Of a stretch of DNA of 24,000 bases, positions 1 to 20,134 are shown piece after piece (the stretch's first letter is position 1; each line of letters begins with the position of its first letter). Origin of the DNA: Oceanococcaceae bacterium (GTDB lineage Bacteria; Pseudomonadota; Gammaproteobacteria; Nevskiales; Oceanococcaceae); NCBI GenBank assembly GCA_041603255.1, contig JBFIER010000011.1, positions 53,611-77,610 on the forward strand, in the 5' to 3' direction. The notes under the pieces are model-generated. The model did no database searches, had not been told where the DNA came from, and saw only the letters and a program-made list of their open reading frames with translations. The position numbers and the translations under genes are program-made.

Positions 1-303
1 CTGAGCGTCGGGTTCCTGCAGGCCTTCAATCAATTCCTGCAGATGAAACATCAGCCGCCGGGGGTCGTCGTCGGCCTCGTCCAGCGACAGCCATCCGCAG
101 AGGTTGCCGGCTTCCACGCGGGCCTCGCGAATCTGCAGCAGCGTGGTGGATTTGCCGTGGCCGGCGGGGCCTTGCAGAAAGACGACGCGGGCCTCGGGGT
201 GCGCGACGATGGTCTGCAGGATCTGTTCACGCGGCACGCTCCCGGGCACCAGCAAGGGCACATGCAATTTGTGCGAACGATTGCGTCCGGGAATCTGCGC
301 CAT
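1..303 (-). CDS. LuxR/MalT-like STAND-ATPase transcriptional regulator, N-terminal 101 aa only (continues past the window start)
   Basis: Not in the ORF track because it runs off the edge. The reverse complement of 1-303 reads MAQIPGRNRSHKLHVPLLVPGSVPREQILQTIVAHPEARVVFLQGPAGHGKSTTLLQIREARVEAGNLCGWLSLDEADDDPRR... It has a Walker A loop (GPAGHGKST) and the LSLDExD segment typical of MalT/AlkS-class LuxR regulators. ATG is at 303-301, with an AGGAGA Shine-Dalgarno 6 nt upstream (reverse complement of about 310-315). It lies 58 nt downstream of the RND gene on the same strand. Confidence 0.65.
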   Translation of the reverse strand, partial: MAQIPGRNRSHKLHVPLLVPGSVPREQILQTIVAHPEARVVFLQGPAGHGKSTTLLQIREARVEAGNLCGWLSLDEADDDPRRLMFHLQELIEGLQEPDAQ

Positions 304-2735: not shown

Positions 2736-4130
2736 TTAGACGCGCCCGAGCCGCTGCAGCGCTTGCTGGGTCAGATAACGCTCGTACATATCCGGGTCGT
2801 TCGGGCCGCTGAAGTGTTCACCTTCCAGTTCGCGTACCTGCTCCATGCGGGTGACCTTGCCGGTCTGGATATCCGAAGCGATGACCTGCGTCCAGCTCCA
2901 GTACGGGTGTTTGCCATCCATGACCGTCTTGTCACCGGCTTCGTACAGCGAATACGCACCGTCAAAGGAGCGATAGGGTTCGCCGCGGCGGTCGTAGGTG
3001 ACCATGCCGATCAGCGTCTGATTGCGGGCATCAAACCACAACCGCTTCTTGGAAACCGGAGCGCGCGGAAAGCCGGTGGGCTCGCATTCGATGACGATGG
3101 CTTCGGGCACCAGTTCGACTACGGTGTCCCAGAAGCTGTCGTCTTTCTCGCCACCGTGGGTGTTGTGTTCCCAGTTGTCGTGTTCGGCGTGGAAGTTGCC
3201 GGACAGCCCCGCCAGGAACGGCCCGCGTCCCACGATCTTGAAATTCCCCCAGGTGTTGAGCGGATCGCCGGCACCCCAGGCATCCGACAGATACAGCGTC
3301 GTCTTCGGCAACAGGGGCTCGAAACGCTGGCTGGTGGGGAACTGGCGGATGCGGCGGAATTCGGGAACGTAGCCGTACAGCAGCGGGAAGGTGTTCTGAT
3401 CGTAGTCCCAGATGTTCAGGAACGACGTGCCCCGAAAGTTGTACGGCTCCAGGAAGAACACCGATTGAAAGCGCAGCTTGTCCTTGTGTTCCTCCCAGTA
3501 GGGTTTGGGGTCCATGGAGACACGCGCAACGGTGTTCAGCTCGGCCCAGCCACCGGTGTATTCGAAGCTCACGGAACCGTCCGCTTCGATGTTGGAAATC
3601 TTGACCGCGTAGAAAGACGCGTCGTGTCGGCCCCAGCTCAGAACCTGGGCGGCATACAGTTCGATCGCCTTTTGCGGGTCGGGGAAGGGATTGCCGCCGA
3701 TCCACGGCTGACCGTCCAGCGTCACCACATTGCCGCTGTCATCGAACTTGGCCTGGCCCGCGTTGCGCAGTGTCGCTTCCACGTACTCCCACGGCGACAG
3801 GCGGTAGGGGTCGGTGGTGGTCGGGGCGATTTTGAGCTTGCGGCCCTGATTCAGGATCTGCTCATAGCGAATGGGCTCGAGCAGATCTTTGACATGCTCC
3901 ACGTTGGCTGCGGTGATCTCATCACCGGTGCTGATCTTGCCCTTGGTGTAGCCCTCGATGGACAGCAGCTCGTCCGGATAAGCCGACGAGATGTCGCCTT
4001 TGTCCTTGATGGCGGCCCACAACGGGCTGATCACCCCCGTGGCCAGCACACCCAGGCCGGCATCCCGTAAGAATTTGCGGCGGCTGTAGTTCGAATCGTA
4101 TCGGCGAATATGCATTGTGTTTGCTGGCAT
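2736..4130 (-). CDS. DUF1329-family (LolA-like fold) periplasmic protein, paralog 1 (464 aa)
   Basis: Full-length ORF, roughly half identical by eye to the ORF at 15379-16767. Examples: YTKGKISTGDEI / YTKGKISTGDII, FRRIRQFPTSQRFEPL / FRRVRQFPTNQRFEPL, and both C-termini end QQALQRLG. The N-terminus carries SRRKFL plus a hydrophobic stretch. An alternative start is the ATG at 4115 (MHIRRYDSNY, matching the paralog's MNIRKYDFNY). Confidence 0.8.
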   Translation of the reverse strand: MPANTMHIRRYDSNYSRRKFLRDAGLGVLATGVISPLWAAIKDKGDISSAYPDELLSIEGYTKGKISTGDEITAANVEHVKDLLEPIRYEQILNQGRKLKIAPTTTDPYRLSPWEYVEATLRNAGQAKFDDSGNVVTLDGQPWIGGNPFPDPQKAIELYAAQVLSWGRHDASFYAVKISNIEADGSVSFEYTGGWAELNTVARVSMDPKPYWEEHKDKLRFQSVFFLEPYNFRGTSFLNIWDYDQNTFPLLYGYVPEFRRIRQFPTSQRFEPLLPKTTLYLSDAWGAGDPLNTWGNFKIVGRGPFLAGLSGNFHAEHDNWEHNTHGGEKDDSFWDTVVELVPEAIVIECEPTGFPRAPVSKKRLWFDARNQTLIGMVTYDRRGEPYRSFDGAYSLYEAGDKTVMDGKHPYWSWTQVIASDIQTGKVTRMEQVRELEGEHFSGPNDPDMYERYLTQQALQRLGRV

Positions 4131-4312
4131 CCTGCAGCGAGTCTCCCGGGCGAATCATGCCCGAGCTTCGGTGAGGGTGCCCCTATCTTCCGTTAGGGGG
4201 CTCTGACGGAATCCAAGGTGACGGTTTCCTTGGTGGCGCTCCTGAGCCAGCGCCGGCGGCAAAGACAGCGGTCCCTTGCACTCGTCACAGGGCTTCCGCG
4301 CCATGGACGGCG

Positions 4313-4361
4313 CCTGCACTTCTCCGCGCCGTCCGTGGCGCGGAGACCCTGCGCCGGAACC
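4313..4361. repeat. 49-nt perfect direct repeat, copy 1
   Basis: CCTGCACTTCTCCGCGCCGTCCGTGGCGCGGAGACCCTGCGCCGGAACC, identical to 4416-4464 (offset 103 nt). It contains a 10-bp stem with a 6-nt loop. Confidence 0.9.
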
Positions 4362-4370
4362 ACTCCAAAA

Positions 4371-4480
4371 GGCCCGGGAGAGCCGGGGTTCCACCGCAGG
4401 GACGTCTGACCGGCTCCTGCACTTCTCCGCGCCGTCCGTGGCGCGGAGACCCTGCGCCGGAACCCCGGCTCTCCCGGGCC
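4371..4480. repeat. Perfect 20-nt inverted repeat pair enclosing direct-repeat copy 2
   Basis: GGCCCGGGAGAGCCGGGGTT (4371-4390) is the exact reverse complement of AACCCCGGCTCTCCCGGGCC (4461-4480). Together they could form a 20-bp stem around a 70-nt loop that itself contains a 10-bp hairpin. Confidence 0.85.
4416..4464. repeat. 49-nt perfect direct repeat, copy 2
   Basis: Identical to 4313-4361 on base-by-base reading. Confidence 0.9.
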
Positions 4481-4506
4481 GTCAGCAATGGCCAGTTCGG
4501 GTTCCA

Positions 4507-5376
4507 TCAGAGGTTTCTTGGAGGCTGGGAAGGGAGGGTGGTGAGCGGTAGAGGCTTCGTTTCCGTTTCGCAGGATGTCTCCAGGGCCGAGCGCAACAGA
4601 TCCGTGGTGTCGGGCAGCCAGCGATAGTGACCCGCATCGGCCTCGCAGTATCGAAGGCTGCCGTCGCAGCCGTTGTAAGTCATGCAGCCATTGGGGGTGA
4701 CACGCACGCTGCTGCAACCCATGCATTGGGCCCAGCCTTCGGCAGCGGAACTTCCGTAGCCGGGGAACAGGCTGTCCCGGCGTCCGTGGTACAGGGTGAC
4801 GTGGATGCCGGTCGGGCATTGAAACTCTGCAAAGTCCGCCTGCCGCAGGCCGGCGCCGCTGGCCACGATGGCTTTGGGCCGGAGTGGCTGCTCGTAGGGC
4901 AGCAGTGCCAGCAACTGCGCCACGCTGCCCCCGTCTGAGTGCCCGGTGAACGTGACTCTCTGTGGGTCCACACACCAGTGCTGCTGGATGCGCTTCACCT
5001 GCTCGGCCAGCCGTGGGATGGCGGTCGGGCTCAACCGCACGCTGCTGATATAGGCCACGATGATGCCGCGGCCGGTGGCCGCATGCGTCAAACCGACCCA
5101 GCGTTCGGTCAGATGGCTGTTGGCGCCGGCGGGACTGAACACCACCAAAAGCGGATGAGCGCGGGTAGGCTGATAGTTGCTGGGGGTGCGCACATGGAAG
5201 GCGGGCAGTGCGGGGTCCGCGGGCAGGGGGGCGGTGTTGGCGGCACACGCAGCCACGCTGGCGGCAGGGTAATCATAGGCCGCGGGTCTGATGGCCTCCC
5301 CCCAATGGAGCTGGGTCGCCAGCAGGGCAAAAGGAAGCGCCAGGATCACCGCCCAGAGGGCAAACTGTCGCATCAT
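4507..5376 (-). CDS. Secreted alpha/beta-hydrolase esterase, LpqC / PHB-depolymerase-like
   Basis: GHSDGG nucleophile elbow (GxSxG) in VTFTGHSDGGSVAQ, preceded by HPLLVVFSPAGANSH (oxyanion-region-like). The C-terminus is Cys-rich (QCPTG..., CMGCSS..., NGCMTYNGCDGSLRYCE), as in LpqC-type esterases. The start is moved to MMRQFALWAVILALPFALLATQ (ATG at 5376 or 5373), which gives a clean signal peptide. The track ORF start at 5463 would overlap the divergent MerR gene. Confidence 0.65.
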   Translation of the reverse strand: MMRQFALWAVILALPFALLATQLHWGEAIRPAAYDYPAASVAACAANTAPLPADPALPAFHVRTPSNYQPTRAHPLLVVFSPAGANSHLTERWVGLTHAATGRGIIVAYISSVRLSPTAIPRLAEQVKRIQQHWCVDPQRVTFTGHSDGGSVAQLLALLPYEQPLRPKAIVASGAGLRQADFAEFQCPTGIHVTLYHGRRDSLFPGYGSSAAEGWAQCMGCSSVRVTPNGCMTYNGCDGSLRYCEADAGHYRWLPDTTDLLRSALETSCETETKPLPLTTLPSQPPRNL

Positions 5377-5447: not shown

Positions 5448-6191
5448 ATGAGCAAAATGACAAAAAAAACGCGCCCGCGAACCAGCCAGACCGAGCGGCC
5501 GGCGCCGTACAAAATGAAGCAGGTCGAGGAGATGACCGGTGTGTCGCGGGAGACCGTTCGGTTCTACATCAGCGAAGGCCTGTTGCCCCCGCCGGTGAAG
5601 TCCGCCCGCAACATGGCCTGGTACTCGGACCGCCATGTCGAATTGCTGCGTCTGATCTCGCGTTTGCAGAACGAACAGTTTTTGCCGCTGCGCGCCATTC
5701 GTTCGCTGGTGCACGGCACCGAAGACATCAGTTTTACTCCCCAGCAGGAGGCGGTGCTCGATGAAATTCGCCAGGAACTGAGCGGGGTCGACGTGCTGCA
5801 CCATGCGGCGAATGAGGAATCCATCGGTGATTGCCCGGAGGGTTTCAGTGGCTGCGAGTGCGAGGAGTTGCGTCAGTTGGGTGAACTGTCGGGGGAGAAC
5901 GACAGCGCGCTGGAAAATGACCTGCGCCGGATCTGGGCGCGTTTGCGGCAGAACGGTTTGACCGAGGAACGGGGTTTCAGTCCGGCCAACCTCGAGTTTC
6001 TGTCCGAACTGGCCAAACTCGCCGTGCAGGAGGAACTGCGGCTGTTTGGCGAAAAGATCGTCCAGATGTCCGAGGGCGAAGCCAAGCGTTTGTCCCATGA
6101 AGTCATCCCCGCGTTGAACGATGTATTCAGTCTCCTCCACAAGCAGCGCCTGACGTTGGCCATCAAAAATCTGCTTGAAGAGCGCAAGTAG
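5448..6191 (+). CDS. MerR-family transcriptional regulator with a long C-terminal domain containing a C-x6-C-x-C cluster
   Basis: MerR-type winged HTH: YKMKQVEEMTGVSRETVRFYISEGLLPPPVKSARNMAWYSDRHVELLRLISRLQNEQFLPLRAIRSLV. Cys129/Cys136/Cys138 (GDCPEGFSGCECEE, nt 5832-5861). The start is uncertain: ATG 5448, 5457 or 5514, and none has a strong Shine-Dalgarno. Confidence 0.8.
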   Translation: MSKMTKKTRPRTSQTERPAPYKMKQVEEMTGVSRETVRFYISEGLLPPPVKSARNMAWYSDRHVELLRLISRLQNEQFLPLRAIRSLVHGTEDISFTPQQEAVLDEIRQELSGVDVLHHAANEESIGDCPEGFSGCECEELRQLGELSGENDSALENDLRRIWARLRQNGLTEERGFSPANLEFLSELAKLAVQEELRLFGEKIVQMSEGEAKRLSHEVIPALNDVFSLLHKQRLTLAIKNLLEERK

Positions 6192-6234
6192 CTTAGCGCG
6201 ATAAACGCAAAGTGCGTAGTGTGTCCACGTACAG

Positions 6235-6267
6235 TTGACACAATTTGCAACATCATGCCAGCATAGT
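6235..6267 (+). promoter_or_regulatory. Candidate sigma70-type promoter upstream of the monooxygenase operon (perfect -35, over-long spacer)
   Basis: TTGACA at 6235-6240. The best -10-like hexamers are CAGCAT (18-nt spacer) and CATAGT (6262-6267, 21-nt spacer, 4/6 match to TATAAT). No experimental support; motif reading only. Confidence 0.25.
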
Positions 6268-6304
6268 TTCGCGCCCATTACGGGCCGTTGCTCGAGGAGA
6301 TCAC

Positions 6305-7114
6305 ATGAGTAAGCAAATTGAGATGGGTGCCGGCGCTGTCGACACTCCGCGTGCACCCTGGCGTGCCATCTTTCTGGCGTTGGCCGGGATTGCCGTCGTT
6401 TTCGGCTTGTATCGCGTTTATCAGCATCAAACCGCCTTTACCTTCGGCCTGGACTATTTCAGCGATGACTTCCAGAAGTACTGGATGACCGTGCTGTACG
6501 TCGAGCTGACGGTCATTCCGTTGCTGGGCGCTGCGATCGTCGGTTATCTGTGGAAGACCCGTGACCGTCATCTGGACCAGCTCAAGCCGGTGGATGAACT
6601 GGGTCGTTACATGAAACTGGTGGGCATGCTGCTGCTGTTCGTAACGGTGTTCTACCTGACCGGTTCGATCTACGCCGAATCCGATGCCGCCTGGCACCAG
6701 GTGACCGTGCGTGATACCGATTTCACCCCCACCCATATCGGCTTGTTCTACTTCGCGGTTCCGACCCTGATCGTGCTGGGTGTGAGCAGCTTCATGTACG
6801 CACGAACCCGCTTGCCGCAGTTTGCCGAGCGGGTCTCCCTGCCGTTTGCCATCGCGGTGGCCGGCCCGATCATGATCATGCCGAACCTCGGTTTCAACGA
6901 ATGGGGCCACACGTTTTTCTACGCTGAAGAGCTGTTTGCCGCACCGATTCACTGGGGCTTCGTGCTGCTGGGCTGGGCGGTGTTCGCTGCCGCCGGGCTG
7001 CTGGTGCAGGTGCTGACCCGCATCATCGCGCTGACCAAGCAAATGAACGATGACGCCGCTGCCGCCGTGCAGCCGGTGTTGAGGCAGGATCAGGCGGTCG
7101 CCAAGGCCGCCTGA
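6305..7114 (+). CDS. pmoC: Copper membrane monooxygenase subunit C (PmoC/AmoC family)
   Basis: Hallmark motifs are SDAAWHQVTVRDTDFTPTH and GFNEWGHTFFYAEELFAAPIHWGFVLLGW. These conserve the D-x3-H-x12-H (D127/H131/H144) and N-x3-H-x13-H (N198/H202/H216) ligand sets described for the PmoC CuC and CuD sites. The start is moved to ATG 6305 (MSKQIEMG), preceded by a GAGGAG Shine-Dalgarno. The track's TTG at 6245 lacks one. Confidence 0.9.
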   Translation: MSKQIEMGAGAVDTPRAPWRAIFLALAGIAVVFGLYRVYQHQTAFTFGLDYFSDDFQKYWMTVLYVELTVIPLLGAAIVGYLWKTRDRHLDQLKPVDELGRYMKLVGMLLLFVTVFYLTGSIYAESDAAWHQVTVRDTDFTPTHIGLFYFAVPTLIVLGVSSFMYARTRLPQFAERVSLPFAIAVAGPIMIMPNLGFNEWGHTFFYAEELFAAPIHWGFVLLGWAVFAAAGLLVQVLTRIIALTKQMNDDAAAAVQPVLRQDQAVAKAA

Positions 7115-7125
7115 GGGGAAATCTC

Positions 7126-7162
7126 CAAGAAGCCGCCTTGACCAGGCGGCTTCTTGCTTTTG
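7126..7162 (+). terminator. Strong stem-loop with a short T-tract between subunit C and subunit A genes (attenuator, transcript-processing or stability element)
   Basis: CAAGAAGCCGCC (7126-7137), loop TTGACCA, GGCGGCTTCTTG (7145-7156): a perfect 12-bp stem, followed by CTTTTG. It lies 12 nt after the pmoC stop and 15 nt before the pmoA ATG. Confidence 0.5.
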
Positions 7163-7176
7163 AGTGAGGGAGACAT

Positions 7177-7923
7177 ATGGCTATCTCAGCATCTGCCACG
7201 CAGGCGGAGAAGGATGCGCATCGCATCAATGTTCAGTTCGATACGCTCATCATTCCATTGGTGGTGCTGGTGTTCGCTGCGGTTTTCAGCTTTCACTTCG
7301 CGCTGTTGGTGGGGGATTGGGACTACTGGATCGACTGGCGTGACCGCCGTTGGTGGCCGCTGGTTACGCCGTTGGCCATTACTGTCATCCCGGCGGTATT
7401 CGGCTACTTTCTCTGGGAGCGTTTGCGCCTCCCGCTGGCGGCGACGCTGTCTTTTCTCGCCTTGGGTGTGGCTGCCTGGATCAGCCGCTATCTGAACTTT
7501 CACCTGTTCGCGAACTTCCCGATGAACATGGTGTGGCCCTCCACCTTCATCGGCCTGGGCTTGATCATCGACTGCGTGCTGTTGCTGACACGGAGCTGGT
7601 TCTGGACCGGCCTGTTCGGCGCCTTCGCCGTCGGCTTGCTGATCTATCCGCTCAACTGGCCGCTGCTCGCGCCCTTTCAGGTGCCGGTGGAAATTCACGG
7701 CACGATGCTGACCGTGGCCGACCTGATGGGCTTTGAATACGTGCGTACCGCGATACCGGAATACGTGCGCATTATCGAGGAGTCCACGTTGCGAACCTTC
7801 GGGGAGGCGGTCACGCCATTGACAGCCGTCTTTGCCGGCTTCCTCAACATCATGAATTACTGGCTGTGGGTATGGGTCGGGTATCTCGCTGCGAAGGCCA
7901 TCTGGCTGCGTCGTATCGTCTGA
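7177..7923 (+). CDS. pmoA: Copper membrane monooxygenase subunit A (PmoA/AmoA family)
   Basis: GDWDYWIDWRDRRWWP, NFPMNMVWPSTF, ADLMGFEYVRTAIPEYVRIIEESTLRTFG. These closely parallel the PmoA/AmoA signatures GDWDFWVDWKDRRMWP and [36 protein letters not shown] Shine-Dalgarno upstream. Confidence 0.9.
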   Translation: MAISASATQAEKDAHRINVQFDTLIIPLVVLVFAAVFSFHFALLVGDWDYWIDWRDRRWWPLVTPLAITVIPAVFGYFLWERLRLPLAATLSFLALGVAAWISRYLNFHLFANFPMNMVWPSTFIGLGLIIDCVLLLTRSWFWTGLFGAFAVGLLIYPLNWPLLAPFQVPVEIHGTMLTVADLMGFEYVRTAIPEYVRIIEESTLRTFGEAVTPLTAVFAGFLNIMNYWLWVWVGYLAAKAIWLRRIV

Positions 7924-7941
7924 TTTCCCGAGGAGAGATTC

Positions 7942-9168
7942 ATGCACAAATCAATTATGTGGGCGCTGGTTGCTCTGCTCGGGCTGTGGCTTCCGGTACA
8001 GGAGGCATGGGCGCACGGTGAGCGGGCGCAGATGCCGCAGCTCCGGATGCGCACGGTTCACTGGATGGATGTGGCCCTGTCACATTCCAAAATCGATGTG
8101 AACGATACGGTCAAGATCACCGGCAGCTTCATTCCGTCGGAGTACTGGCCGGATCACGTGGCCAGCATCGAGGATGTGGCCTTTCTCAATATCGGTGTCC
8201 CGGGGCCGTCTTTCGTGCGCCTGGATTCGCGGGTCAACGGGGTGCCGATGATCCGTTCCACCGGGTTCGAGAAAGGCAAGCTCTATCACTTCGAAGTGTT
8301 GCTCAAGGCCCGCAAGGCCGGCCGTGTGCACGTGCACCCGGTCATCAACGTCAAGGACACCGGCCCGATTATCGGCCCGGGCTTGTGGCTGGAAGTAAAC
8401 GAGGGCGCAGTGCCGTTCGAGAACACGGCCACCACCCTTTTGGGCAAGACCATCGACCTGGAAACCTACGGGTTTGCGAATGCGGCCATGTGGTCGGCAT
8501 TGTGGGGAGTGATCGGTCTGGCCTGGTTCGTGTACTGGCTGATGAAGTGTCCCATCGTCATTCCGCGGTTCAAACGCGCCGCCGAATTGGGCAAGGATGC
8601 GGATGAAATGATCACGCCAACGGATCGCAAGGTGGGCGCGGTGTTCCTGTCGCTGACCTTGCTGGTGATGCTCGGCGGGTACAAATACGCCAACGAGCGT
8701 TGGCCGATCACGACCCCGCTGCAAACCGGACGGATCAAAACACCGGGCCTGGAAGCCTACGACGGCACCGTCAAGGCGGATCTGGTCAGCGCGCGCTACC
8801 GCATTCCGGGCCGCAGTTTCCGGATGGAAATGGAAGTCACGAACAACGGCAGTTCGCCGCTGCGGGTGGGCGAATTTGCCGCCGGCGGTTTGCGCTTCAT
8901 CAATGCCGAGGTGCTTCAGGTGGCGCCCCGGGATGCGGATGACCTCATCGCTCCGGATGCGCTGCGTGTGGACGGCGGCGCGATTCCCGCCGGTGAAACC
9001 CGCACCATCGTGGTCTACGCTGATGACGCGATGTGGGAAACTCAGCGGATGACCACGATGATCGCGTCACCCGACGCCATCGTCGCTGGCATGCTGTTTT
9101 TCTTCGATGCTGAAGGCCGTCGCTACCCGCTGGAAATTGGCGGGACCATGATTCCGGAATTTGTCTGA
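7942..9168 (+). CDS. pmoB: Copper membrane monooxygenase subunit B (PmoB/AmoB family)
   Basis: A signal peptide ending AWA exposes an N-terminal His (H25, nt 8014-8016) in HGERAQMPQLRMRTVHWMD. The GRVHVHPVINV motif (H130/H132) completes the CuB-type His-brace ligand set. Two central TM helices (AAMWSALWGVIGLAWFVYWLM and VGAVFLSLTLLVMLGGY) separate two soluble domains, as in PmoB. Confidence 0.9.
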   Translation: MHKSIMWALVALLGLWLPVQEAWAHGERAQMPQLRMRTVHWMDVALSHSKIDVNDTVKITGSFIPSEYWPDHVASIEDVAFLNIGVPGPSFVRLDSRVNGVPMIRSTGFEKGKLYHFEVLLKARKAGRVHVHPVINVKDTGPIIGPGLWLEVNEGAVPFENTATTLLGKTIDLETYGFANAAMWSALWGVIGLAWFVYWLMKCPIVIPRFKRAAELGKDADEMITPTDRKVGAVFLSLTLLVMLGGYKYANERWPITTPLQTGRIKTPGLEAYDGTVKADLVSARYRIPGRSFRMEMEVTNNGSSPLRVGEFAAGGLRFINAEVLQVAPRDADDLIAPDALRVDGGAIPAGETRTIVVYADDAMWETQRMTTMIASPDAIVAGMLFFFDAEGRRYPLEIGGTMIPEFV

Positions 9169-9764
9169 TGAAGTTGTTGTCTGCACTGCTTCTGCTGTTT
9201 CTCGCCGTGGGCGTGGCCACCGAAGTCTCCGCTCACGGTGGGGTCTCGGTGGAAGACGATGCCTGTGTCATGCGCATTGGTCCGTATCGGGCGCATTTCA
9301 CGGGCTACCAACCCGAGCTGCGGGCAACCCAGGAATTCTGCGAAGACATTCCGGAAACGGCCTCGGCCATCATCGTGCTGGACTTCATCGATGGCGAGCT
9401 GCGCGATCAGGAAATGGCCTTCTACCTGTTGCGCGATGACAAGGGCATTGGCAAAACTGCGACCTTCAAGGATCTCGGGTCGATGGACGCGGTGCGTTCA
9501 GACTGCATCCTGTGCGTGGAGCCCAAGAAGTATCCTCGTGGCACAATCACGCTGGACTACCCTTTCACCGAAGGAGGCTGGTACATCGGCGTGCTGGAGG
9601 CGCGAAATCCGGAAACGGGCGAGACCATCCATTCGGTGTTTCCCTTCCAGGTTGGCGTGCGTCACTACTGGGGTTTTGTCATCGCAGGCCTGATCGTGGT
9701 GGCGCTCTCGGTGTTGCTCTACCGCGTTACCGGAAGAAACCTTGCGAGTAAAAACACGGCTTGA
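9168..9764 (+). CDS. Membrane-anchored periplasmic protein of unknown function in the PmoD/AmoD syntenic position (candidate copper protein)
   Basis: The ATG overlaps the pmoB stop (TGATG). A signal peptide ending VSA exposes His23 (HGGVSVEDDAC). There are four Cys, including C113-x2-C116 (SDCILCVEP, nt 9504-9515). A single C-terminal TM helix (HYWGFVIAGLIVVALSVLLYRV) follows. The architecture (signal peptide, about 140-aa periplasmic domain, one C-terminal TM) and the position between xmoB and copC match PmoD/AmoD/AmoE. I cannot confirm homology by eye. Confidence 0.45.
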   Translation: MKLLSALLLLFLAVGVATEVSAHGGVSVEDDACVMRIGPYRAHFTGYQPELRATQEFCEDIPETASAIIVLDFIDGELRDQEMAFYLLRDDKGIGKTATFKDLGSMDAVRSDCILCVEPKKYPRGTITLDYPFTEGGWYIGVLEARNPETGETIHSVFPFQVGVRHYWGFVIAGLIVVALSVLLYRVTGRNLASKNTA

Positions 9765-10156
9765 ATGACATGCGAGTACCCACCCGCTGGCACCATATTC
9801 TCACGACACTTGCGCTGACCCTGATCTCCGGGGCCGTTTGCGCACATGCCGCGCTGGTTCGCTCCGTTCCCGGCACGCGTGCCGTACTGCAGGGTTCGCC
9901 AACGCAAATCGAGCTGTGGTTCAACGAGGCGGTCGAGGAGTCGTTTTCGACGATCACGCTGGTGGCCCCGGGCGATGTCGAGGTGCAGCTGGGAAAACCC
10001 CATGTGGATTCCAGTGATCCCTACCGTCTGGCCGTGGATCTGCCCGCGCTGAGTCCGGGGCGCTATACCGTTCGCTATCGCGTGCTGTCCAAAGATGGGC
10101 ACCTGGTGGAATACGGATACCAGTTCGTGTTGGAGTCTGCGCCCGAACGCCCGTGA
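9761..10156 (+). CDS. copC: CopC-family periplasmic copper-binding protein (Cu(II)-site-only type)
   Basis: A signal peptide ending VCA exposes HAALVRSVPG (the N-terminal His of the CopC Cu(II) site). VRYRVLSKDGHLVEYGYQF is the CopC C-terminal signature (DGH). The mature protein has no Met, so the Met-rich Cu(I) site is absent. The start is either TTG 9761, overlapping the upstream stop, or ATG 9770. Confidence 0.85.
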   Translation: MNDMRVPTRWHHILTTLALTLISGAVCAHAALVRSVPGTRAVLQGSPTQIELWFNEAVEESFSTITLVAPGDVEVQLGKPHVDSSDPYRLAVDLPALSPGRYTVRYRVLSKDGHLVEYGYQFVLESAPERP

Positions 10157-12159
10157 TCGAATCTCTCGGCGTTGCAGGGCGCATGGTGTTCCTGCTGGGC
10201 GCACTGGGAGCAGTGGGCAGCGCCGGTTTCCTGCTTTTAGCTCCCGCGGCATCCGCACCGGCTTCTGCGGTGAGCGCCTGGCGCCTGATGTGGTTCTGGC
10301 GGTTGGGGTTTTTCCCGTTGCTGATCGGGCTGGGCCTGGCGCTGCAATTGCTGGCGCAGGCACTGAACCTCATGGGGCCGGAACTCGCCAAGGCCTTGCA
10401 TCCCGAAGTACTCGAGCCGCTGCTGCGACGAACCAATTTCGGTTGGGTCTGGAGCGCCCGGCTCGCTGCGATGTTCCTGCTGGTCTTGTTCTGGGCGGGC
10501 ACGCTGGGCATGAAGCGCGGGGATCGCCGGTACAGCGCCGCTCCGGTACTGGTGCTGGCAGCGCTGGCCGCCATGATCGGCCCTTTTGCCGGGCATAGTT
10601 CCGGCGCCGAATCACCCCCTTTGATGATGAGCCTGAATGCGCTGCACATCCTCGCGGCGGGGCTGTGGGCGGGTGCGCTGCCGTGCTGGGTAAGCTGGGC
10701 ACGCCTGAATCGGGTGCAGGCTGCCGCGCCCAATGCCATCGATACGGTGCGGCGATTTTCAACCCTTGCTGCCGGGTGCGTGGTGATCCTGCTGCTCAGC
10801 GGCGTGTGGCTTGCGGATGAGTTCGTTGAACACCTCGGTGATTTGCTCGGGACCCGTTATGGCCTGCTGATCGTCGTCAAGGTTGGGTTTTTTGCTGCGG
10901 CGCTGCTGTTGGCCAATCGCATACGTCACCGGCTGCTGGAAATGCCGAAAGGGGGCGGTGCGGGCCACTCGGGCTTTTTCGCCGGTGTCGTTATGTCGGC
11001 GCGGGGTGAGCTATTGGCGGTGCTGCTGGTGGTCATCGCTGCGGGTGCGTTGGCGCAGACTACGCCGGCGATTCACGATCAGCCGGTCTGGTTCCTGCCG
11101 TTTCGGGTATCCCCCGAAGCCGCCTGGGATGCCTGGCCGGAAGCCTTGTACGGTGGCCTTTATGGCCTGCTGGCTTTGCTGGCTCTGGGGCTCTGGGGGG
11201 GCGGCCGGGTCTGGAAGAAACCGCTGCCGACGCCACTTGCGTGGGGATTGCTGCCGACCGTACTGGTGGGGGGCAGCGGGGCGTTGTACTGGTTCTCCGT
11301 TCCCGCTTACCCGGATACCTATCGGCGTTCGGATGTGCCGTATCTGGCAGCGTCCGTGGTCCAGGGACAGTTGCTGTTCGAGCAGCACTGCGTCTCCTGC
11401 CATGGCAGCGGTGGGTTGGGAGATGGCAAGCAGGCCGCCTATCTGCCGGTGCCACCGGCCGACCTGAGCGAACCCCATACATCGCTGCATACGGCCGGCG
11501 ACATGTACTGGTGGTTCACGCATGGTATTCCCCAGAGCGGTATGCCCGGTTTCGCCGGCAAGCTGAGTGAGCAGGATCGCTGGGATCTGGTCAATTTCCT
11601 GCGGGCCTTCTCGCGTGGGTTCGAGGCCCGTGTATTGCGCGATGTGATCGTGCCGCGCGACCCCTGGCTGGGGGCGCCCAATTTCTACTTCGACAGCCCG
11701 GCCGGGTTTTCCGAGCTGAAGGCGTTGCGGGAGACCCACACCGCACTGCTGGTGTTCGCGGATTATGCGAATCCGCAGAGCCAGGAGCGCCTGGCGGCAC
11801 TGGATCGTGCGCAGCCTCGACTGCAGCAGGCCGGTTTGCGGATTTTGGTGGTGCCGATCAACCCGGAGCTGCCCGAGCCGGCGTTGCCCGCGCTGCAAAT
11901 TGTGCGCAACGAGGCGCGGCCGATCTGGGCGACCTACAGCCTGTTGTCACGCAGCCTGGCTGATCGGGGTGACGATGACGCGCTGGGGGTGCAGCGTACG
12001 CATGTGGAATTTCTGGTCGACCGGTTTGGTTATCTGCGGGCGCGATGGATACCCGGAGAGTCCAGCGGTTGGACAGATATCGAGCGTTTGCTGACTCAGG
12101 TAAATGCCTTGATGACGGAACCGGAAATCGAGCCGCCGCCTGACGACCACGTGCATTAA
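10153..12159 (+). CDS. copD: CopD-family membrane protein fused to a mono-heme c-type cytochrome and a Cys-less thioredoxin/redoxin-like C-terminal domain (668 aa)
   Basis: The GTG start overlaps the copC stop (GTGA). The N-terminal ~300 aa are polytopic with CopD-like FAGHSSGAE and LHILAAGLWAGALP. More TM helices extend to about aa 395. CVSCHGSGGLGDG (C413-x2-C416-H417, nt 11389-11403) plus a downstream GMPGF give a class I cytochrome c. From about aa 500-650, TALLVFADYANPQSQERL...GLRILVVPINPE...HVEFLVDRFGYLRARW looks like an AhpC/TSA/redoxin fold, but ANPQS (nt 11767-11781) sits where CxxC is expected. Confidence 0.8.
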   Translation: MIESLGVAGRMVFLLGALGAVGSAGFLLLAPAASAPASAVSAWRLMWFWRLGFFPLLIGLGLALQLLAQALNLMGPELAKALHPEVLEPLLRRTNFGWVWSARLAAMFLLVLFWAGTLGMKRGDRRYSAAPVLVLAALAAMIGPFAGHSSGAESPPLMMSLNALHILAAGLWAGALPCWVSWARLNRVQAAAPNAIDTVRRFSTLAAGCVVILLLSGVWLADEFVEHLGDLLGTRYGLLIVVKVGFFAAALLLANRIRHRLLEMPKGGGAGHSGFFAGVVMSARGELLAVLLVVIAAGALAQTTPAIHDQPVWFLPFRVSPEAAWDAWPEALYGGLYGLLALLALGLWGGGRVWKKPLPTPLAWGLLPTVLVGGSGALYWFSVPAYPDTYRRSDVPYLAASVVQGQLLFEQHCVSCHGSGGLGDGKQAAYLPVPPADLSEPHTSLHTAGDMYWWFTHGIPQSGMPGFAGKLSEQDRWDLVNFLRAFSRGFEARVLRDVIVPRDPWLGAPNFYFDSPAGFSELKALRETHTALLVFADYANPQSQERLAALDRAQPRLQQAGLRILVVPINPELPEPALPALQIVRNEARPIWATYSLLSRSLADRGDDDALGVQRTHVEFLVDRFGYLRARWIPGESSGWTDIERLLTQVNALMTEPEIEPPPDDHVH

Positions 12160-12184
12160 CAATCAACTTCTAGAGGAATCGATC

Positions 12185-12679
12185 ATGTTCAATACCAAAC
12201 TTCCCCGGGTTTCGGCGCTGGCCGCCTGCATGACGCTGGCCGTGACGGCCTTCACCGCTATTGCCAATGACAAAAACGATGCCCACAGCATGCACGAGGG
12301 GCACATGATGCACGCTGGTGATGCGTCCATGAAAAAGAACGCCGGCAGTTATCCGGAATTGAAGATCCTGCTGCCGCAGGACGGCGCGACCGTCAGCTCG
12401 CAATTGGCCGTGGTGTTTTCAACGCCGGGACATATGGCGGATCTCACCATGGGCGCGCCGACACCGGGCGTCCACCTGCATATTGATACCCAGGATGTGT
12501 CGTTGATGCCGACGATGCAGCAGCTGGTCTCCCTGGGCGGCGGCAACTATCTGTTTCTGTTTGATCTGCCGGTCAAGCCGGGCGCGCACAAGATCAACGT
12601 GTACTGGTCCGATGCGCAGCACAAGACCATTCAGGAGTCGGTGCGCTCCATCACCGTCACGGTGCCAGCAAAGCGGTGA
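12185..12679 (+). CDS. Periplasmic His/Met-rich protein with a DUF4399-like beta-sandwich domain (candidate copper-binding protein)
   Basis: GAGGA Shine-Dalgarno and a signal peptide ending AIA. A HSMHEGHMMHAGDASM tract (nt 12284-12331) resembles periplasmic Cu(I) Met/His motifs. The body (ELKILLPQDGATVSS..., GVHLHIDTQD..., GAHKINVYWSD...ITVTV) resembles my recollection of DUF4399 (GHHHLLID..., GxHxL...). Confidence 0.55.
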   Translation: MFNTKLPRVSALAACMTLAVTAFTAIANDKNDAHSMHEGHMMHAGDASMKKNAGSYPELKILLPQDGATVSSQLAVVFSTPGHMADLTMGAPTPGVHLHIDTQDVSLMPTMQQLVSLGGGNYLFLFDLPVKPGAHKINVYWSDAQHKTIQESVRSITVTVPAKR

Positions 12680-15352: not shown

Positions 15353-15378
15353 CGTATTACTCACGAGGAGACACAACC

Positions 15379-17798: not shown

Positions 17799-17842
17799 AC
17801 AATTCCGCGCATAGAGGCAGCGGTATACACAGGGAAGAGACA

Positions 17843-20024: not shown

Positions 20025-20071
20025 CTCACCCACGTCAATGCCTTACGGGCGGCGTGGGTGAGTATTTGCTT
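20025..20071 (+). terminator. Putative intrinsic terminator downstream of the DUF1302 gene
   Basis: CTCACCCACG (20025-20034) pairs with CGTGGGTGAG (20053-20062): a 10-bp stem with an 18-nt loop, followed by the T-rich TATTTGCTT. The loop is long, so confidence is moderate. Confidence 0.4.
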
Positions 20072-20134
20072 GTGGCGCGGCTCGCCGTCCCACGGGTGAA
20101 CTTTGAGTATCGGATTGATAGAGAGGAGAACCTC

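Follow-up and report, generated by a model that had tools for sequence, protein, structure and literature searches.

An intact CuMMO operon, xmoCABD-copC-copD-orf164, in a Nevskiales-like gammaproteobacterium, probably serving hydrocarbon oxidation in a heterotroph

The window, that is, the whole 24-kb stretch of DNA that was analysed, carries an intact CuMMO operon of a Nevskiales-like gammaproteobacterial heterotroph, arranged as xmoCABD-copC-copD(cytochrome c)-orf164. The block is translationally coupled, spans positions 6305-12679 and consists of the following features:

6305-7114, plus strand: xmoC, PmoC/AmoC-like, 269 aa (Pfam AmoC; CuC and CuD ligands)
7126-7156, plus strand: GC-rich 13-bp hairpin, then CTTTTG, 12 nt past the xmoC stop codon
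7177-7923, plus strand: xmoA, PmoA/AmoA-like, 248 aa (Pfam AMO)
7942-9168, plus strand: xmoB, PmoB/AmoB-like, 408 aa (predicted signal peptide cut between AWA and H25; CuB His brace H25/H130/H132)
9168-9764, plus strand: xmoD, PmoD/AmoD homologue, 198 aa (PDB 6cpd_A, PmoD, E 1.1e-10)
9761-10156, plus strand: copC, periplasmic Cu(II)-binding protein (Pfam CopC 1.1e-21)
10153-12159, plus strand: copD fused to a cytochrome c domain, CSCH (Pfam CopD 1.7e-13, Cytochrom_C 4.5e-14)
12185-12679, plus strand: orf164, secreted protein with a His/Met-rich N-terminus (weak DUF4399 match, E 0.0023)

The initial annotation had described a complete C-A-B CuMMO at 6305-9168. All three structural genes are indeed full length and Pfam-matched, and chance is excluded for the assignment because of the E-values obtained (AmoC 1.7e-79 for XmoC, AMO 4.8e-79 for XmoA, Monooxygenase_B 3.4e-123 for XmoB); among solved structures, the best match of XmoA was M. 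capsulatus PmoA (E 8.5e-64). The three ORFs fit that span exactly, but the unit is larger and runs on, via the PmoD homologue, to 12679. GAGGAG precedes the xmoC ATG. The hairpin downstream from xmoC may act as a partial terminator or may stabilise the transcript; the xmoC-xmoA spacer can form a similar hairpin in most of the relatives examined.

PmoD, CopC and CopD after the structural genes are accessory copper proteins typical for pmo/amo clusters. In XmoD, a signal peptide is followed by a cupredoxin-like domain, in which Cys33 and His43 lie, and by a TM helix at the C-terminus; the xmoB stop and the xmoD start share 1 nt, and xmoD was directly 3′ of xmoB in most of the 80 loci. CopC, whose mature N-terminus is probably HAALVRS, contains the DGH motif, and the ends of its gene overlap the neighbours by 4 nt on each side. 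The C-terminal region of CopD (residues 485-668, ~180 aa) matched no Pfam family. The block is closed by orf164, a candidate copper-handling protein found after copD at 40-60% identity in eight of the compared loci and near copCD in two more. In the locus comparison, the seven-gene block was kept in Nevskiales relatives.

The nine copper-ligand residues previously cited for XmoC and XmoB were all recovered, and in alignments they fall on the CuB, CuC and CuD ligand positions of pMMO/AMO structures that have been solved. Precisely, both numbering and nucleotide coordinates were correct for D127 (nt 6683), H131 and H144 (nt 6734-6736) and for N198 (nt 6896), H202 and H216 (nt 6950-6952) of XmoC. 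The alignment with M. capsulatus PmoC (chain 1yew_C) pairs query residues 8-237 with chain residues 37-266, equal lengths that give an offset of +29, by which these residues map to D156/H160/H173 and N227/H231/H245, which we take to be the CuC and the CuD ligands, respectively. The numbering of H25, H130 and H132 of XmoB was also correct. H25 aligned with the first residue of mature M. capsulatus PmoB and would therefore be the N-terminal His after the predicted cleavage between AWA and HGE; H130-V-H132 aligned with the H-V-H of the CuB site. The reported "PmoA core motifs" were a vague claim, but 41 invariant columns were counted in 19 diverse PmoA sequences including that of the window. Of the M. 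capsulatus PmoB bis-His site, XmoB has only one half: H40 is present and the H72 equivalent is Ile64. A new detail is the clade-specific loop past the CuD histidine of XmoC, F205-Y206-A207 (nt 6917-6925): F-Y-A is present in a large clade in place of the near-universal W-F-M. This loop is, according to a review, a possible specificity determinant (PMC13058606).

Neighbour-joining (NJ) trees of the three subunits were built on a small reference set (from which Haliea emoCAB, Nitrosococcus amo, Verrucomicrobia, NC10 and the sequences of Rochman were absent) and with actinobacterial HMO as outgroup. For all three subunits, a Nevskiales clade including the window was sister to the Polaromonas/Rhodoferax/Acidovorax CuMMOs. 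In the PmoB tree the Nevskiales clade had a BS of 94 and the Nevskiales plus Betaproteobacteria group a BS of 100, and the same group of 20 was recovered with PmoA (BS 70) and PmoC (BS 46). The pMMO, AMO, Pxm and actinobacterial HMO references all fell outside this group, with weak deep nodes (BS 30-74). By its sequence, the window enzyme is placed within a large clade of non-methanotroph, non-nitrifier Proteobacteria. None of the three subunits nested in the methanotroph or nitrifier clades in these trees (NJ, not maximum-likelihood); such nesting had been named as what would speak against the initial annotation.

More than 80 species-level genomes have a PmoA closer to the window's than that of any canonical methanotroph or nitrifier. 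PmoA identity was 79% for Sinimarinibacterium and Panacagrimonas, 73% for Solimonas aquatica, 70% for Nevskia and 68% for Polaromonas/Rhodoferax, against 41% for M. capsulatus (global alignment), to whose PmoB about half of the aligned positions are identical. The Kimura distance of the window PmoB was 0.95-1.12 to the PmoB/AmoB references and 0.33-0.47 to Nevskiales and Polaromonas. XmoC and XmoA scored below the NCBIfam Amo/Pmo equivalog cut-offs, and XmoB scored above that of AmoB_BACT (507 vs 336 bits). Among named hosts, those nearest to the window belong to Nevskiales (Sinimarinibacterium, Panacagrimonas, Stagnimonas, Nevskia, Oceanococcus), and the named hosts are heterotrophs.

The remaining genes of the window lie on both sides of the block:

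1-303, minus strand: N-terminal part of a second MalT/STAND-type regulator, Walker A GPAGHGKST, gene running off the window start (weak STAND/AAA Pfam matches)
362-2731, minus strand: RND1, HAE3/MMPL-type RND transporter, 789 aa (Pfam MMPL 4e-30)
2736-4130, minus strand: DUF1329a, LolA-like periplasmic protein, AmeB-type (Pfam DUF1329 1.5e-51)
4507-5373, minus strand: secreted alpha/beta-hydrolase, esterase/lipase-like, GHSDG (gene call; COesterase 1.5e-5 and Lipase_3 4e-4, both below cut-off)
5448-6191, plus strand: MerR-family regulator, 247 aa, directly 5′ of xmoC (Pfam MerR_1 1.3e-18)
12848-15352, plus strand: RND2, HAE3/MMPL-type RND transporter, AmeD-type (Pfam MMPL 3.7e-21)
15379-16767, plus strand: DUF1329b, periplasmic LolA-like protein, AmeB-type (Pfam DUF1329 2.3e-50)
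16767-17798, plus strand: BNR/Ycf48-like beta-propeller, AmeC-type (Pfam PSII_BNR 1.4e-18)
17843-20011, plus strand: DUF1302 outer-membrane protein, AmeA-type (Pfam DUF1302 1e-18)
20054-21697, plus strand: long-chain acyl-CoA synthetase (Pfam AMP-binding 2e-82)
21714-24000, minus strand: MalT/LuxR-family regulator, N-terminus past the window end (Pfam TPR_MalT 3e-24, GerE 9e-16)

A longer ORF on the minus strand (4193-5248) was rejected as a gene, being a spurious Arg-rich frame. The MerR-family regulator has an unassigned C-terminal extension of ~150 aa; homologues with 33-52% identity occur near xmoC in seven loci. The two RND transporters are 54% identical to each other, and RND2 shares 55-58% identity with the RNDs encoded after xmoCABD in Porticoccaceae/Cellvibrionales loci. 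Homologues of the acyl-CoA synthetase are 520 aa long, therefore its true start is probably near nt 20135; its best named homologues (Oceanococcus 68%, Salinisphaeraceae 62%, Zhongshania 60%) give, for a non-CuMMO gene, a host affinity to Nevskiales and Salinisphaerales. The NCBIfam MalT match of the regulator at 21714-24000 begins at model position 142, and its frame is open to the window end. A domain search of all genes of the 24-kb window found neither a PQQ methanol dehydrogenase nor a multihaem HAO domain, in agreement with what had been reported at first, nor was any alcohol or aldehyde dehydrogenase found in the window.

The substrate of a CuMMO cannot be read from its sequence, and CuMMOs are promiscuous. 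The initial annotation had relied on lipid- or hydrophobe-oriented neighbours. These are real (two AmeABCD-type HAE3 RND cassettes, an esterase, an acyl-CoA synthetase, MalT/LuxR), but as evidence they are the weaker part, because the module has also been studied without a CuMMO link in Pseudomonas, Shewanella, Kangiella and Castellaniella; moreover, the RND/acyl-CoA synthetase/LuxR module was not at the operon flanks in the closest Nevskiales relatives. Context evidence from relatives is stronger than that of the window's own neighbours. Beside xmoCABD, relatives have genes for PQQ-cytochrome c alcohol dehydrogenase, GMC oxidoreductase, aldehyde dehydrogenase, acyl-CoA synthetase, thiolase, acyl-CoA dehydrogenase and wax-ester synthase. 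Precisely, a Polaromonas locus has MalT/LuxR, acyl-CoA synthetase, GMC oxidoreductase, aldehyde dehydrogenase and PQQ-cytochrome c alcohol dehydrogenase; a Stagnimonas locus has acyl-CoA synthetase, aldehyde dehydrogenase, thiolase, SDR and acyl-CoA dehydrogenase; a Panacagrimonas locus has aldehyde dehydrogenase, thiolase, SDR, acyl-CoA dehydrogenase, PQQ alcohol dehydrogenase and wax-ester synthase. Using isotope probing and transcription, Rochman and colleagues reportedly tied Polaromonas/Rhodoferax CuMMOs, in 2020, to ethane and propane rather than to methane; the Polaromonas loci compared here come from uranium tailings site isolates, not from the single-cell genomes of that work, and are tied to it by genus only.

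We considered the window CuMMO as probably a hydrocarbon-oxidising enzyme of a heterotroph, not a dedicated methane or ammonia monooxygenase, a reading already proposed at first and now supported by the subunit trees, the equivalog scores and the gene context of relatives. XmoABC would assemble as a trimeric (alpha-beta-gamma)3 inner-membrane complex, which would activate O2 at the copper centre(s) in XmoC and hydroxylate a hydrocarbon, an n-alkane being the most likely one. The resulting alcohol would then pass through alcohol dehydrogenase, aldehyde dehydrogenase and acyl-CoA synthetase to beta-oxidation; genes of this downstream pathway adjoin the operon in relatives, and of these the 24-kb window has the acyl-CoA synthetase alone. 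Copper would be supplied or managed by CopC, CopD, XmoD and orf164, and expression would probably be controlled by the MerR-type gene upstream, by the MalT/LuxR regulators, or by both. The flanking AmeABCD-type cassettes may, by a putative link, carry hydrophobic substrate or product across the envelope.

With a probability that we put slightly short of even, however, the RND cassettes, esterase, acyl-CoA synthetase and MalT/LuxR genes are an independent lipid/fatty-ester module that merely adjoins the CuMMO, the window context then being uninformative on substrate. In P. putida, DUF1302/DUF1329 mutants share a fatty-ester phenotype (Tween 20, butyl stearate) with a separately encoded BNR/RND pair, and the DUF1302/DUF1329 genes adjoin a LuxR-type regulator and are near fatty-acid catabolic genes; the four cassette genes are cofit in Shewanella and Kangiella. 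The gap of 168 nt between orf164 and RND2, and the xmoCABD of the closest Nevskiales relatives, which no cassette adjoins, agree with such a separation. Conversely, the same cassette type recurs 3′ of xmoCABD in an independent CuMMO clade, the Stagnimonas locus has a DUF1302 gene after the block, and in the window such cassettes stand on both sides of it.

It is unlikely that the natural substrate is not a C2-C4 gas but a bulkier or different hydrophobe (medium-chain, branched or cyclic alkane, terpene, alkene, ketone), with the RND cassette transporting the substrate or a toxic product through the envelope. In the window, the copper block has an HAE3 RND-DUF1329-BNR-DUF1302 cassette after it, and at least 12 Porticoccaceae/Cellvibrionales loci have at least the RND and some partners after xmoCABD. 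In Castellaniella, a cassette of this type makes the cells tolerant to monoterpenes (PMC6394551), and the type also occurs within phenanthrene, p-cresol and steroid islands; a CuMMO clade of Porticoccaceae has been implicated in blooms on methylcycloalkanes (preprint 10.1101/2022.11.07.515388), and acetone is oxidised by a CuMMO of Verrucomicrobia (PMC8630023). The genes for wax-ester synthase and full beta-oxidation near the operon in relatives would also suit this reading, as would the smaller F-Y-A for W-F-M in the putative specificity loop of the whole clade (PMC13058606), but its effect on pocket size is only putative. Against this substrate range, the closest Nevskiales relatives are without the cassette beside the operon, the cassette is part of a module studied elsewhere without CuMMO connection, and RND2 is no nearer to the CuMMO-linked RNDs of Porticoccaceae than to its paralogue RND1. 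The sole experimental hint for the sister genera is, reportedly, ethane and propane.

A physiological methane or ammonia monooxygenase of an unrecognised Nevskiales methanotroph or nitrifier is highly improbable: the full copper-ligand set, the pmo/amo-like accessory set, the AmoB_BACT score of XmoB and the moderate pMMO identity would fit it, and the search for MDH and HAO covered only the 24 kb of the window, but the three trees set the enzyme apart from every pMMO, AMO and Pxm reference, XmoC and XmoA are under the equivalog cut-offs, those 24 kb are without MDH or HAO, the operon of relatives is paired with genes for the metabolism of alcohols with at least two carbons, of aldehydes and of acyl-CoA, and the named hosts are heterotrophic.

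Among known systems, the actinobacterial hmoCAB (Mycolicibacterium chubuense NBB4; Rhodococcus sp. ZPP) is also a heterotroph CuMMO, acting on C2-C4 alkanes, and has an AMP-binding gene downstream, but identity is only 26-28% (B), 41-45% (A) and 34-36% (C); neither an xmoD homologue nor copCD is annotated in the NBB4 and ZPP regions, and the CuD motif N-x-W-G-H...H was not found in actinobacterial HMO by the pattern search used. With pMMO (M. capsulatus Bath, Methylocystis) and bacterial AMO, the window enzyme shares the three-subunit family, the C-A-B order, all CuB, CuC and CuD ligands, and the PmoD, CopC and CopD accessory genes; it differs in lying outside their clades, in the sub-cut-off XmoC and XmoA, in F-Y-A instead of W-F-M, in the incomplete bis-His site and in the lack of MDH/HAO genes in the window. 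The Porticoccaceae/Cellvibrionales pHMO clade (B045 group, methylcycloalkane-associated; preprint 10.1101/2022.11.07.515388) belongs to the same large clade (PmoA group of 73, BS 99), and has the F-Y-A loop and xmoCABD followed by an HAE3 RND cassette; it differs in its marine hosts and in identities of only ~50% (PmoA) and 44-47% (PmoB), and tblastn found no homologues of the window copC, copD and orf164 in these loci.

The Polaromonas/Rhodoferax xmoCABD, the sister clade, has PmoA and PmoB 65-68% identical to the window's, together with xmoD, copCD, orf164 and, nearby, a MalT/LuxR regulator and an acyl-CoA synthetase; it belongs, however, to another bacterial order, the copCD surroundings are rearranged and a PQQ alcohol dehydrogenase is inserted after xmoD. 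The most similar systems are the Nevskiales CuMMOs (Solimonas aquatica DSM 25927, Sinimarinibacterium sp. CAU 1509, Panacagrimonas/Nevskia MAGs), of the same clade in all three trees, with a PmoA identity of 70-80% in the scan of genome contigs and of 68-80% over both searches, the xmoCABD order, the F-Y-A loop and, in most, the copC-copD(cytochrome c)-orf164 tail. The window is identical to no species representative (best 80%), and its operon, without the adjacent aldehyde dehydrogenase, thiolase, acyl-CoA dehydrogenase and PQQ alcohol dehydrogenase of Stagnimonas/Panacagrimonas, is bracketed by AmeABCD-type RND cassettes instead. The CuMMOs of Solimonas aquatica, Polaromonas and Rhodoferax are listed with function unknown (PMC6215863; PMC8630023); to the CuMMOs already catalogued in Nevskiales, the window enzyme adds a new member.

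We consider the enzyme encoded in the window to be probably a hydrocarbon monooxygenase rather than one dedicated to methane or ammonia. CuMMOs carry out methane and ammonia oxidation, a few of them act on gaseous alkanes or alkenes, and genome surveys keep turning up family members in ordinary heterotrophs. As far as sequence comparison goes, the subunits in the window are intact, keep every copper ligand and are placed outside the pMMO and AMO clades; their genes form a coupled operon with those of accessory copper proteins. The map of the window, obtained by Pfam, NCBIfam and direct translation, is the following.

1-303, minus strand: N-terminus of a MalT/STAND regulator, which runs off the window start
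between this regulator and the esterase-like hydrolase, minus strand: RND1 and DUF1329a
4507-5373, minus strand: secreted, esterase-like alpha/beta-hydrolase (288 aa, GHSDG nucleophile motif), located upstream of DUF1329a and RND1, which share its strand
5448-6191, plus strand: MerR-family regulator with an unusually long C-terminal extension (about 150 aa, no family match)
6305-7114, plus strand: xmoC, 269 aa, with GAGGAG ahead of the ATG
7177-7923, plus strand: xmoA, 248 aa
7942-9168, plus strand: xmoB, 408 aa
9168-9764, plus strand: xmoD, overlapping the xmoB stop by 1 base; match to PmoD structure 6cpd_A (E 1.1e-10)
9761-10156, plus strand: copC, with 4-nt overlaps with its neighbours
10153-12159, plus strand: copD-cytochrome c fusion, with a 4-nt overlap with copC and CSCH in the cytochrome c domain
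12185-12679, plus strand: orf164, secreted, with the His/Met-rich N-terminus HSMHEGHMMH
12848-20011, plus strand: RND2, DUF1329b, BNR and DUF1302, all four Pfam families matched
right of DUF1302: long-chain acyl-CoA synthetase
21714-24000, minus strand: MalT/LuxR regulator, which runs off the right end of the window

The seven genes from xmoC to orf164 form a copper block between the MerR-family regulator and RND2. The longest ORF of the hydrolase region, 4193-5248 on the minus strand, was rejected as spurious, an Arg-rich frame of the sort common in high-GC DNA; 4507-5373 is the real gene. Regulators of the MalT/STAND-LuxR type lie at both ends of the window and, together with the two RND/DUF1329 cassettes, bracket the CuMMO block. 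AlkS of the Pseudomonas alk system is a member of the MalT/LuxR family.

The initial annotation had described a complete CuMMO in C-A-B order at 6305-9168, and this description was borne out. Exactly three ORFs are found there, in that order, and they match Pfam AmoC PF04896 (XmoC, 1.7e-79), AMO PF02461 (XmoA, 4.8e-79) and Monooxygenase_B PF04744 (XmoB, 3.4e-123) over nearly the full model length, so that the window has the three homologues, of AmoC/PmoC, AmoA/PmoA and AmoB/PmoB, by which the CuMMO superfamily is recognised. The ligand residues proposed at the same time (XmoC D127/H131/H144 and N198/H202/H216, XmoB H25/H130/H132) were all confirmed by script, with their nucleotide coordinates, and were aligned to solved chains. 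Precisely, the CuC-type D/H/H set (nt 6683-6736) and the CuD-type N/H/H set (nt 6896-6952) of XmoC are both complete and conserved in comparison with the Methylocystis, Methylosinus, M. capsulatus and AMO chains. Residues 8-237 of XmoC align with residues 37-266 of M. capsulatus PmoC at equal length, hence with an offset of +29, and the two sets therefore map to PmoC D156/H160/H173 and N227/H231/H245, which we take, from the published structures, to be the CuC and CuD sites. In XmoB, H25 is aligned with the first residue of mature M. capsulatus PmoB and H130-V-H132 with the H-V-H of its CuB site, which gives the full His brace (N-terminal His plus H-x-H).

G+C content is 0.57-0.59 across xmoC and xmoA (6001-8000) against 0.63-0.66 in the 3 kb before, a drop that would fit an operon acquired laterally. 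Two related loci, one on a Nevskiaceae chromosome (L003, 7978-9900) and one in a related MAG (L007, 3022-5100), carry xmoC twice in tandem before xmoA, with copies 64-66% identical to the window XmoC.

The operon runs beyond 9168. Proteins of the PmoD/AmoD type consist of a signal peptide, a cupredoxin-like domain with a conserved Cys and a C-terminal TM helix (PMC13058606). XmoD follows subunit B; it carries both the signal peptide and, in WGFVIAGLIVVALSVLLY, the C-terminal TM helix, and its Cys33 and His43 are aligned with 6cpd_A, so it belongs with PmoD/AmoD. For the C-terminal ~180 aa of the CopD-cytochrome c protein no Pfam or NCBIfam family was found; the fusion itself is kept in relatives at 39-47% identity. 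The sole family signal of orf164 in Pfam and NCBIfam is a weak DUF4399 match, and homologues at 40-60% identity close the xmoCABD-copCD block in Nevskiales and lie near copCD in Polaromonas, which makes the product a candidate copper-handling protein. When the window proteins were compared by tblastn with 80 related loci, xmoD was immediately 3′ of xmoB in most of them; the entire xmoCABD-copC-copD-orf164 block was kept in nine Nevskiales relatives (L005-L010, L013, L027, L040) and rearranged in two Polaromonas loci (L014, L017).

The MerR-family gene lies immediately upstream of xmoC, and at least seven related loci have a homologue with 33-52% identity close to xmoC. The 113-nt spacer between the two genes showed no convincing operator or promoter; in the sigma-70 promoter scan nothing exceeded the shuffled expectation, and upstream of xmoC there was no match. 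The TTGACA present at 6235-6240 lacks a good -10 box at the usual distance, and the single imperfect 16-nt inverted repeat that overlaps it was considered insufficient to call a MerR operator. The Rfam scan of the whole window returned no RNA family. At 7126-7156, 12 nt past the xmoC stop, there is a GC-rich 13-bp hairpin followed by CTTTTG, and in most of the relatives examined the spacer between xmoC and xmoA also has GC-rich hairpins, unrelated in sequence and often with a T-run. The xmoC transcript may be partly terminated, or else stabilised, at the hairpin.

The place of the enzyme in the family was evaluated by a PmoA search, in which the best named relatives were Sinimarinibacterium sp. 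CAU 1509 and Panacagrimonas (both Nevskiaceae, 79% identity), Solimonas aquatica (73%), Nevskia (70%) and Hydrogenophaga (68%). With one genome per species, the scan gave 548 relatives, and the best 80 of these included no recognised methanotroph or nitrifier. Among these 80 there were Nevskiales at 73-80% PmoA identity; Acidovorax, Polaromonas, Rhodoferax and a Bordetella-labelled MAG at 68-74%; Pseudomonadales at 57-64%; and Macondimonas, Porticoccaceae and Cycloclasticus at about 50%. The acyl-CoA synthetase, a non-CuMMO gene whose best named homologues are from Oceanococcus (68%), Salinisphaeraceae (62%) and Zhongshania (60%), points to the same host affinity as the CuMMO.

We built neighbour-joining trees with 100 bootstraps for each subunit, with few references: from PDB alignments, PmoB of M. 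capsulatus, M. alcaliphilum 20Z and Methylocystis, AmoB 9leg, and PmoC of Methylocystis and Methylosinus; from annotated plasmids, Methylomagnum pxmABC and hmoCAB of M. chubuense NBB4 and Rhodococcus ZPP. In the PmoB tree the window falls in a Nevskiales clade (bootstrap 94) whose sister is formed by betaproteobacterial sequences (joint bootstrap 100), and all references are outside. The same 20-member Nevskiales plus Betaproteobacteria group recurs in the PmoA (bootstrap 70) and PmoC (bootstrap 46) trees, the deep nodes of all these trees being weak, and a PmoA clade of 73 sequences (bootstrap 99) leaves out M. capsulatus PmoA, Pxm and Cycloclasticus. The window is thus a member of the Nevskiales/Betaproteobacteria xmoCABD group, which comprises putative alkane monooxygenases.

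A dedicated methane enzyme is disfavoured by these trees, in which M. capsulatus, M. alcaliphilum 20Z, Methylocystis and Methylosinus are all outside the window's clade, and by the pMMO equivalog models TIGR03078/03080/03079, whose cut-offs are not reached by XmoC (256.7 vs 280.6 bits), XmoA (251.5 vs 318.2) or XmoB (386.9 vs 394.9). For an ammonia enzyme, AmoB 9leg and the beta-AOB-like AmoC representative P0135 are outside the clade as well; XmoC (289.9 vs 319) and XmoA (273.8 vs 290) are below the NCBIfam AmoC_BACT and AmoA_BACT cut-offs, and XmoB (507.4 vs 336) is above that of AmoB_BACT. The check by subunit trees that the initial annotation had proposed, carried out here by neighbour-joining rather than maximum likelihood on three subunits and few references, hence gave no nesting in either the pMMO or the AMO clades. 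Its choice of a hydrocarbon over methane or ammonia is probably correct on the strength of the trees, of the XmoC and XmoA scores below the Amo and Pmo cut-offs, and of the gene context of relatives, and would not surprise specialists as new.

The neighbours in the window itself, from which that choice had been argued, have to be weighed differently. They are hydrophobe-oriented, as described, and the window contains no methanol dehydrogenase or hydroxylamine oxidoreductase gene in its 24 kb, again as described; genes for C1 assimilation and for the partner cytochromes of hydroxylamine oxidoreductase are likewise missing from it. RND2 (COG1033), DUF1329b, the BNR/Ycf48-like protein and DUF1302 stand together at 12848-20011 as in HAE3 RND cassettes of the AmeABCD type, and of the upstream copy only DUF1329 and RND are inside the window. 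AmeABCD is the HAE3 RND system that gives monoterpene tolerance in Castellaniella defragrans; ameABCD has the same composition as the window cassette and a different gene order (PMC6394551). A four-gene cluster of this composition is cofit in Shewanella and Kangiella, and in Pseudomonas stutzeri it is divided between two cofit pairs. In P. putida, a fatty-ester phenotype is common to DUF1302/DUF1329 mutants and a separately encoded BNR/RND pair, and the DUF1302/DUF1329 genes adjoin a LuxR regulator, near fatty-acid catabolic genes. The module is self-contained and known elsewhere with no link to a CuMMO, and it is absent beside xmoCABD in the closest Nevskiales relatives; the window context alone is weak evidence of substrate.

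The context in relatives is more informative. Beside the operon, Stagnimonas (L005) has genes for an acyl-CoA synthetase, an aldehyde dehydrogenase, a thiolase, an SDR and an acyl-CoA dehydrogenase, and Panacagrimonas (L009) for an aldehyde dehydrogenase, a thiolase, an SDR, an acyl-CoA dehydrogenase, a PQQ alcohol dehydrogenase and a wax-ester synthase. In Polaromonas (L014), a MalT/LuxR gene and, on the opposite strand, acyl-CoA synthetase, GMC oxidoreductase and aldehyde dehydrogenase genes are upstream of xmoC, and a PQQ-cytochrome c alcohol dehydrogenase gene comes after xmoD. Together these genes make up a recognisable alkane-to-acyl-CoA route adjoining the operon, which strengthens the hydrocarbon case. 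The case is also strengthened by at least 12 Porticoccaceae/Cellvibrionales loci (L043-L045, L053, L055, L059, L065, L068, L069, L071, L077, L081) in which an RND cassette of the window type follows xmoCABD, with the RND gene within 1-3 kb, usually with DUF1329 and/or BNR, and with DUF1302 detected in L059 only. We rejected RND2 as a specific orthologue of these CuMMO-linked RNDs: it is 55-58% identical to them and 54% to its paralogue RND1, hence no closer, and co-inheritance is unsupported.

As a hydrocarbon monooxygenase, the protein would be a trimeric inner-membrane enzyme hydroxylating its substrate at the XmoC copper centre or centres; current opinion, for reasons reviewed in PMC13058606, places the CuMMO active site preferably in the C subunit. 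Copper would be supplied by CopC, CopD, XmoD and orf164, and expression would be controlled by the MerR and/or MalT/LuxR-type regulators. The product would reach beta-oxidation through alcohol and aldehyde dehydrogenases, with genes in other parts of the genome, and then through the acyl-CoA synthetase. We take short n-alkanes as the default substrates. Rochman et al. 2020 reportedly linked xmoCABD in populations of Rhodoferax and Polaromonas with ethane and propane, not methane, and these populations are said to be the only members of the xmoCABD group with experimental evidence on alkanes. Polaromonas AER18D-145 and AET17H-212 were considered as single-cell genomes of that study, an identification that was dropped because a genome announcement describes AER18D-145 as an unrelated uranium-tailings isolate.

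Within the hydrocarbon reading, a bulkier or other hydrophobic substrate is unlikely, although it deserves some weight: methylcycloalkanes have been put forward as substrates of the Porticoccaceae CuMMO clade (preprint 10.1101/2022.11.07.515388), and the CuD-ligand loop, poorly conserved, is possibly specificity-determining (PMC13058606). From H202 to H216 this loop reads H-T-F-F-Y-A-E-E-L-F-A-A-P-I-H in the window XmoC, with F205-Y206-A207 at nt 6917-6925, and H-[TA]-F-W-F-M-E-E-L-F-x-A-P-L-H in all solved pMMO/AMO chains. F-Y-A is found in about 65 of the 75 related loci bearing xmoC, even at 45-50% overall XmoC identity; Cycloclasticus and one further locus (L067) keep W-F/I-M, Pxm has W-F-R, and one alphaproteobacterial group has F-F-M. 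We also considered representatives of the whole family at 50% identity. Among these the Trp is near universal, one F-W-Y-A intermediate exists, and F-Y-A is limited to six, all with N-E-W-[GA]-H-T-F-F-Y-A as in the window's relatives. The F-Y-A clade spans Nevskiales, several Betaproteobacteria and Pseudomonadales including Porticoccaceae. That the remodelled pocket and the recurrent downstream AmeABCD-type cassette adapt this clade to hydrocarbons of greater size than the C1-C4 gases with which CuMMOs have been connected until now is a speculative and rather doubtful proposal; its candidate substrates would be compounds that have five or more carbons or are branched, cyclic or terpenoid.

CuMMO operons of unknown function have already been recorded in Solimonas aquatica, Polaromonas and Rhodoferax (PMC6215863; PMC8630023), and Nevskiales MAGs with pmoCAB were catalogued in a 2026 survey (PMC13603553). 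The window adds one member to the Nevskiales CuMMO group, catalogued since the Solimonas aquatica genome, and its value is more practical than conceptual. In pmoA/amoA-based surveys, sequences of the Nevskiales type should not be counted as methanotrophs or nitrifiers. Two cultured relatives, Sinimarinibacterium sp. CAU 1509 and Solimonas aquatica DSM 25927, are open to direct assay, and the F-Y-A substitution in the CuD loop and the recurrent RND cassette are two testable handles on substrate range.

Compared with the known systems, the window operon differs from Pxm in gene order (C-A-B against A-B-C), and Methylomagnum pxmABC (L082), at 41-45% identity, is outside its clade. The actinobacterial hmoCAB of NBB4 and Rhodococcus, which served as outgroup, have a PmoB identity of 26-28%, and the window does not group with this HMO/BMO type either. 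Shortly downstream of hmoCAB on these plasmids (M. chubuense NBB4 pMYCCH.01, L083 5788-7320; Rhodococcus sp. ZPP pRZP1, L084 5043-6578) there is an AMP-binding gene, an arrangement reminiscent of the acyl-CoA synthetases near proteobacterial xmo operons. Of the bis-His copper site that H48 and H72 form in M. capsulatus PmoB, XmoB keeps one half: H40 (8059-8061) is present and the H72 equivalent is Ile64 (8131-8133). XmoD has C-V-M-R where PmoD has C-M-V-M, with different Met positions beside the Cys. Genes for alcohol and aldehyde oxidation next to the operon, a trait of the xmoCABD group seen in the Stagnimonas, Panacagrimonas and Polaromonas loci, are missing from the window, which has just the acyl-CoA synthetase and the MalT/LuxR regulators; in having xmoD after xmoB and the copC/copD/orf164 tail, the window agrees with the Nevskiales/Betaproteobacteria xmoCABD group.
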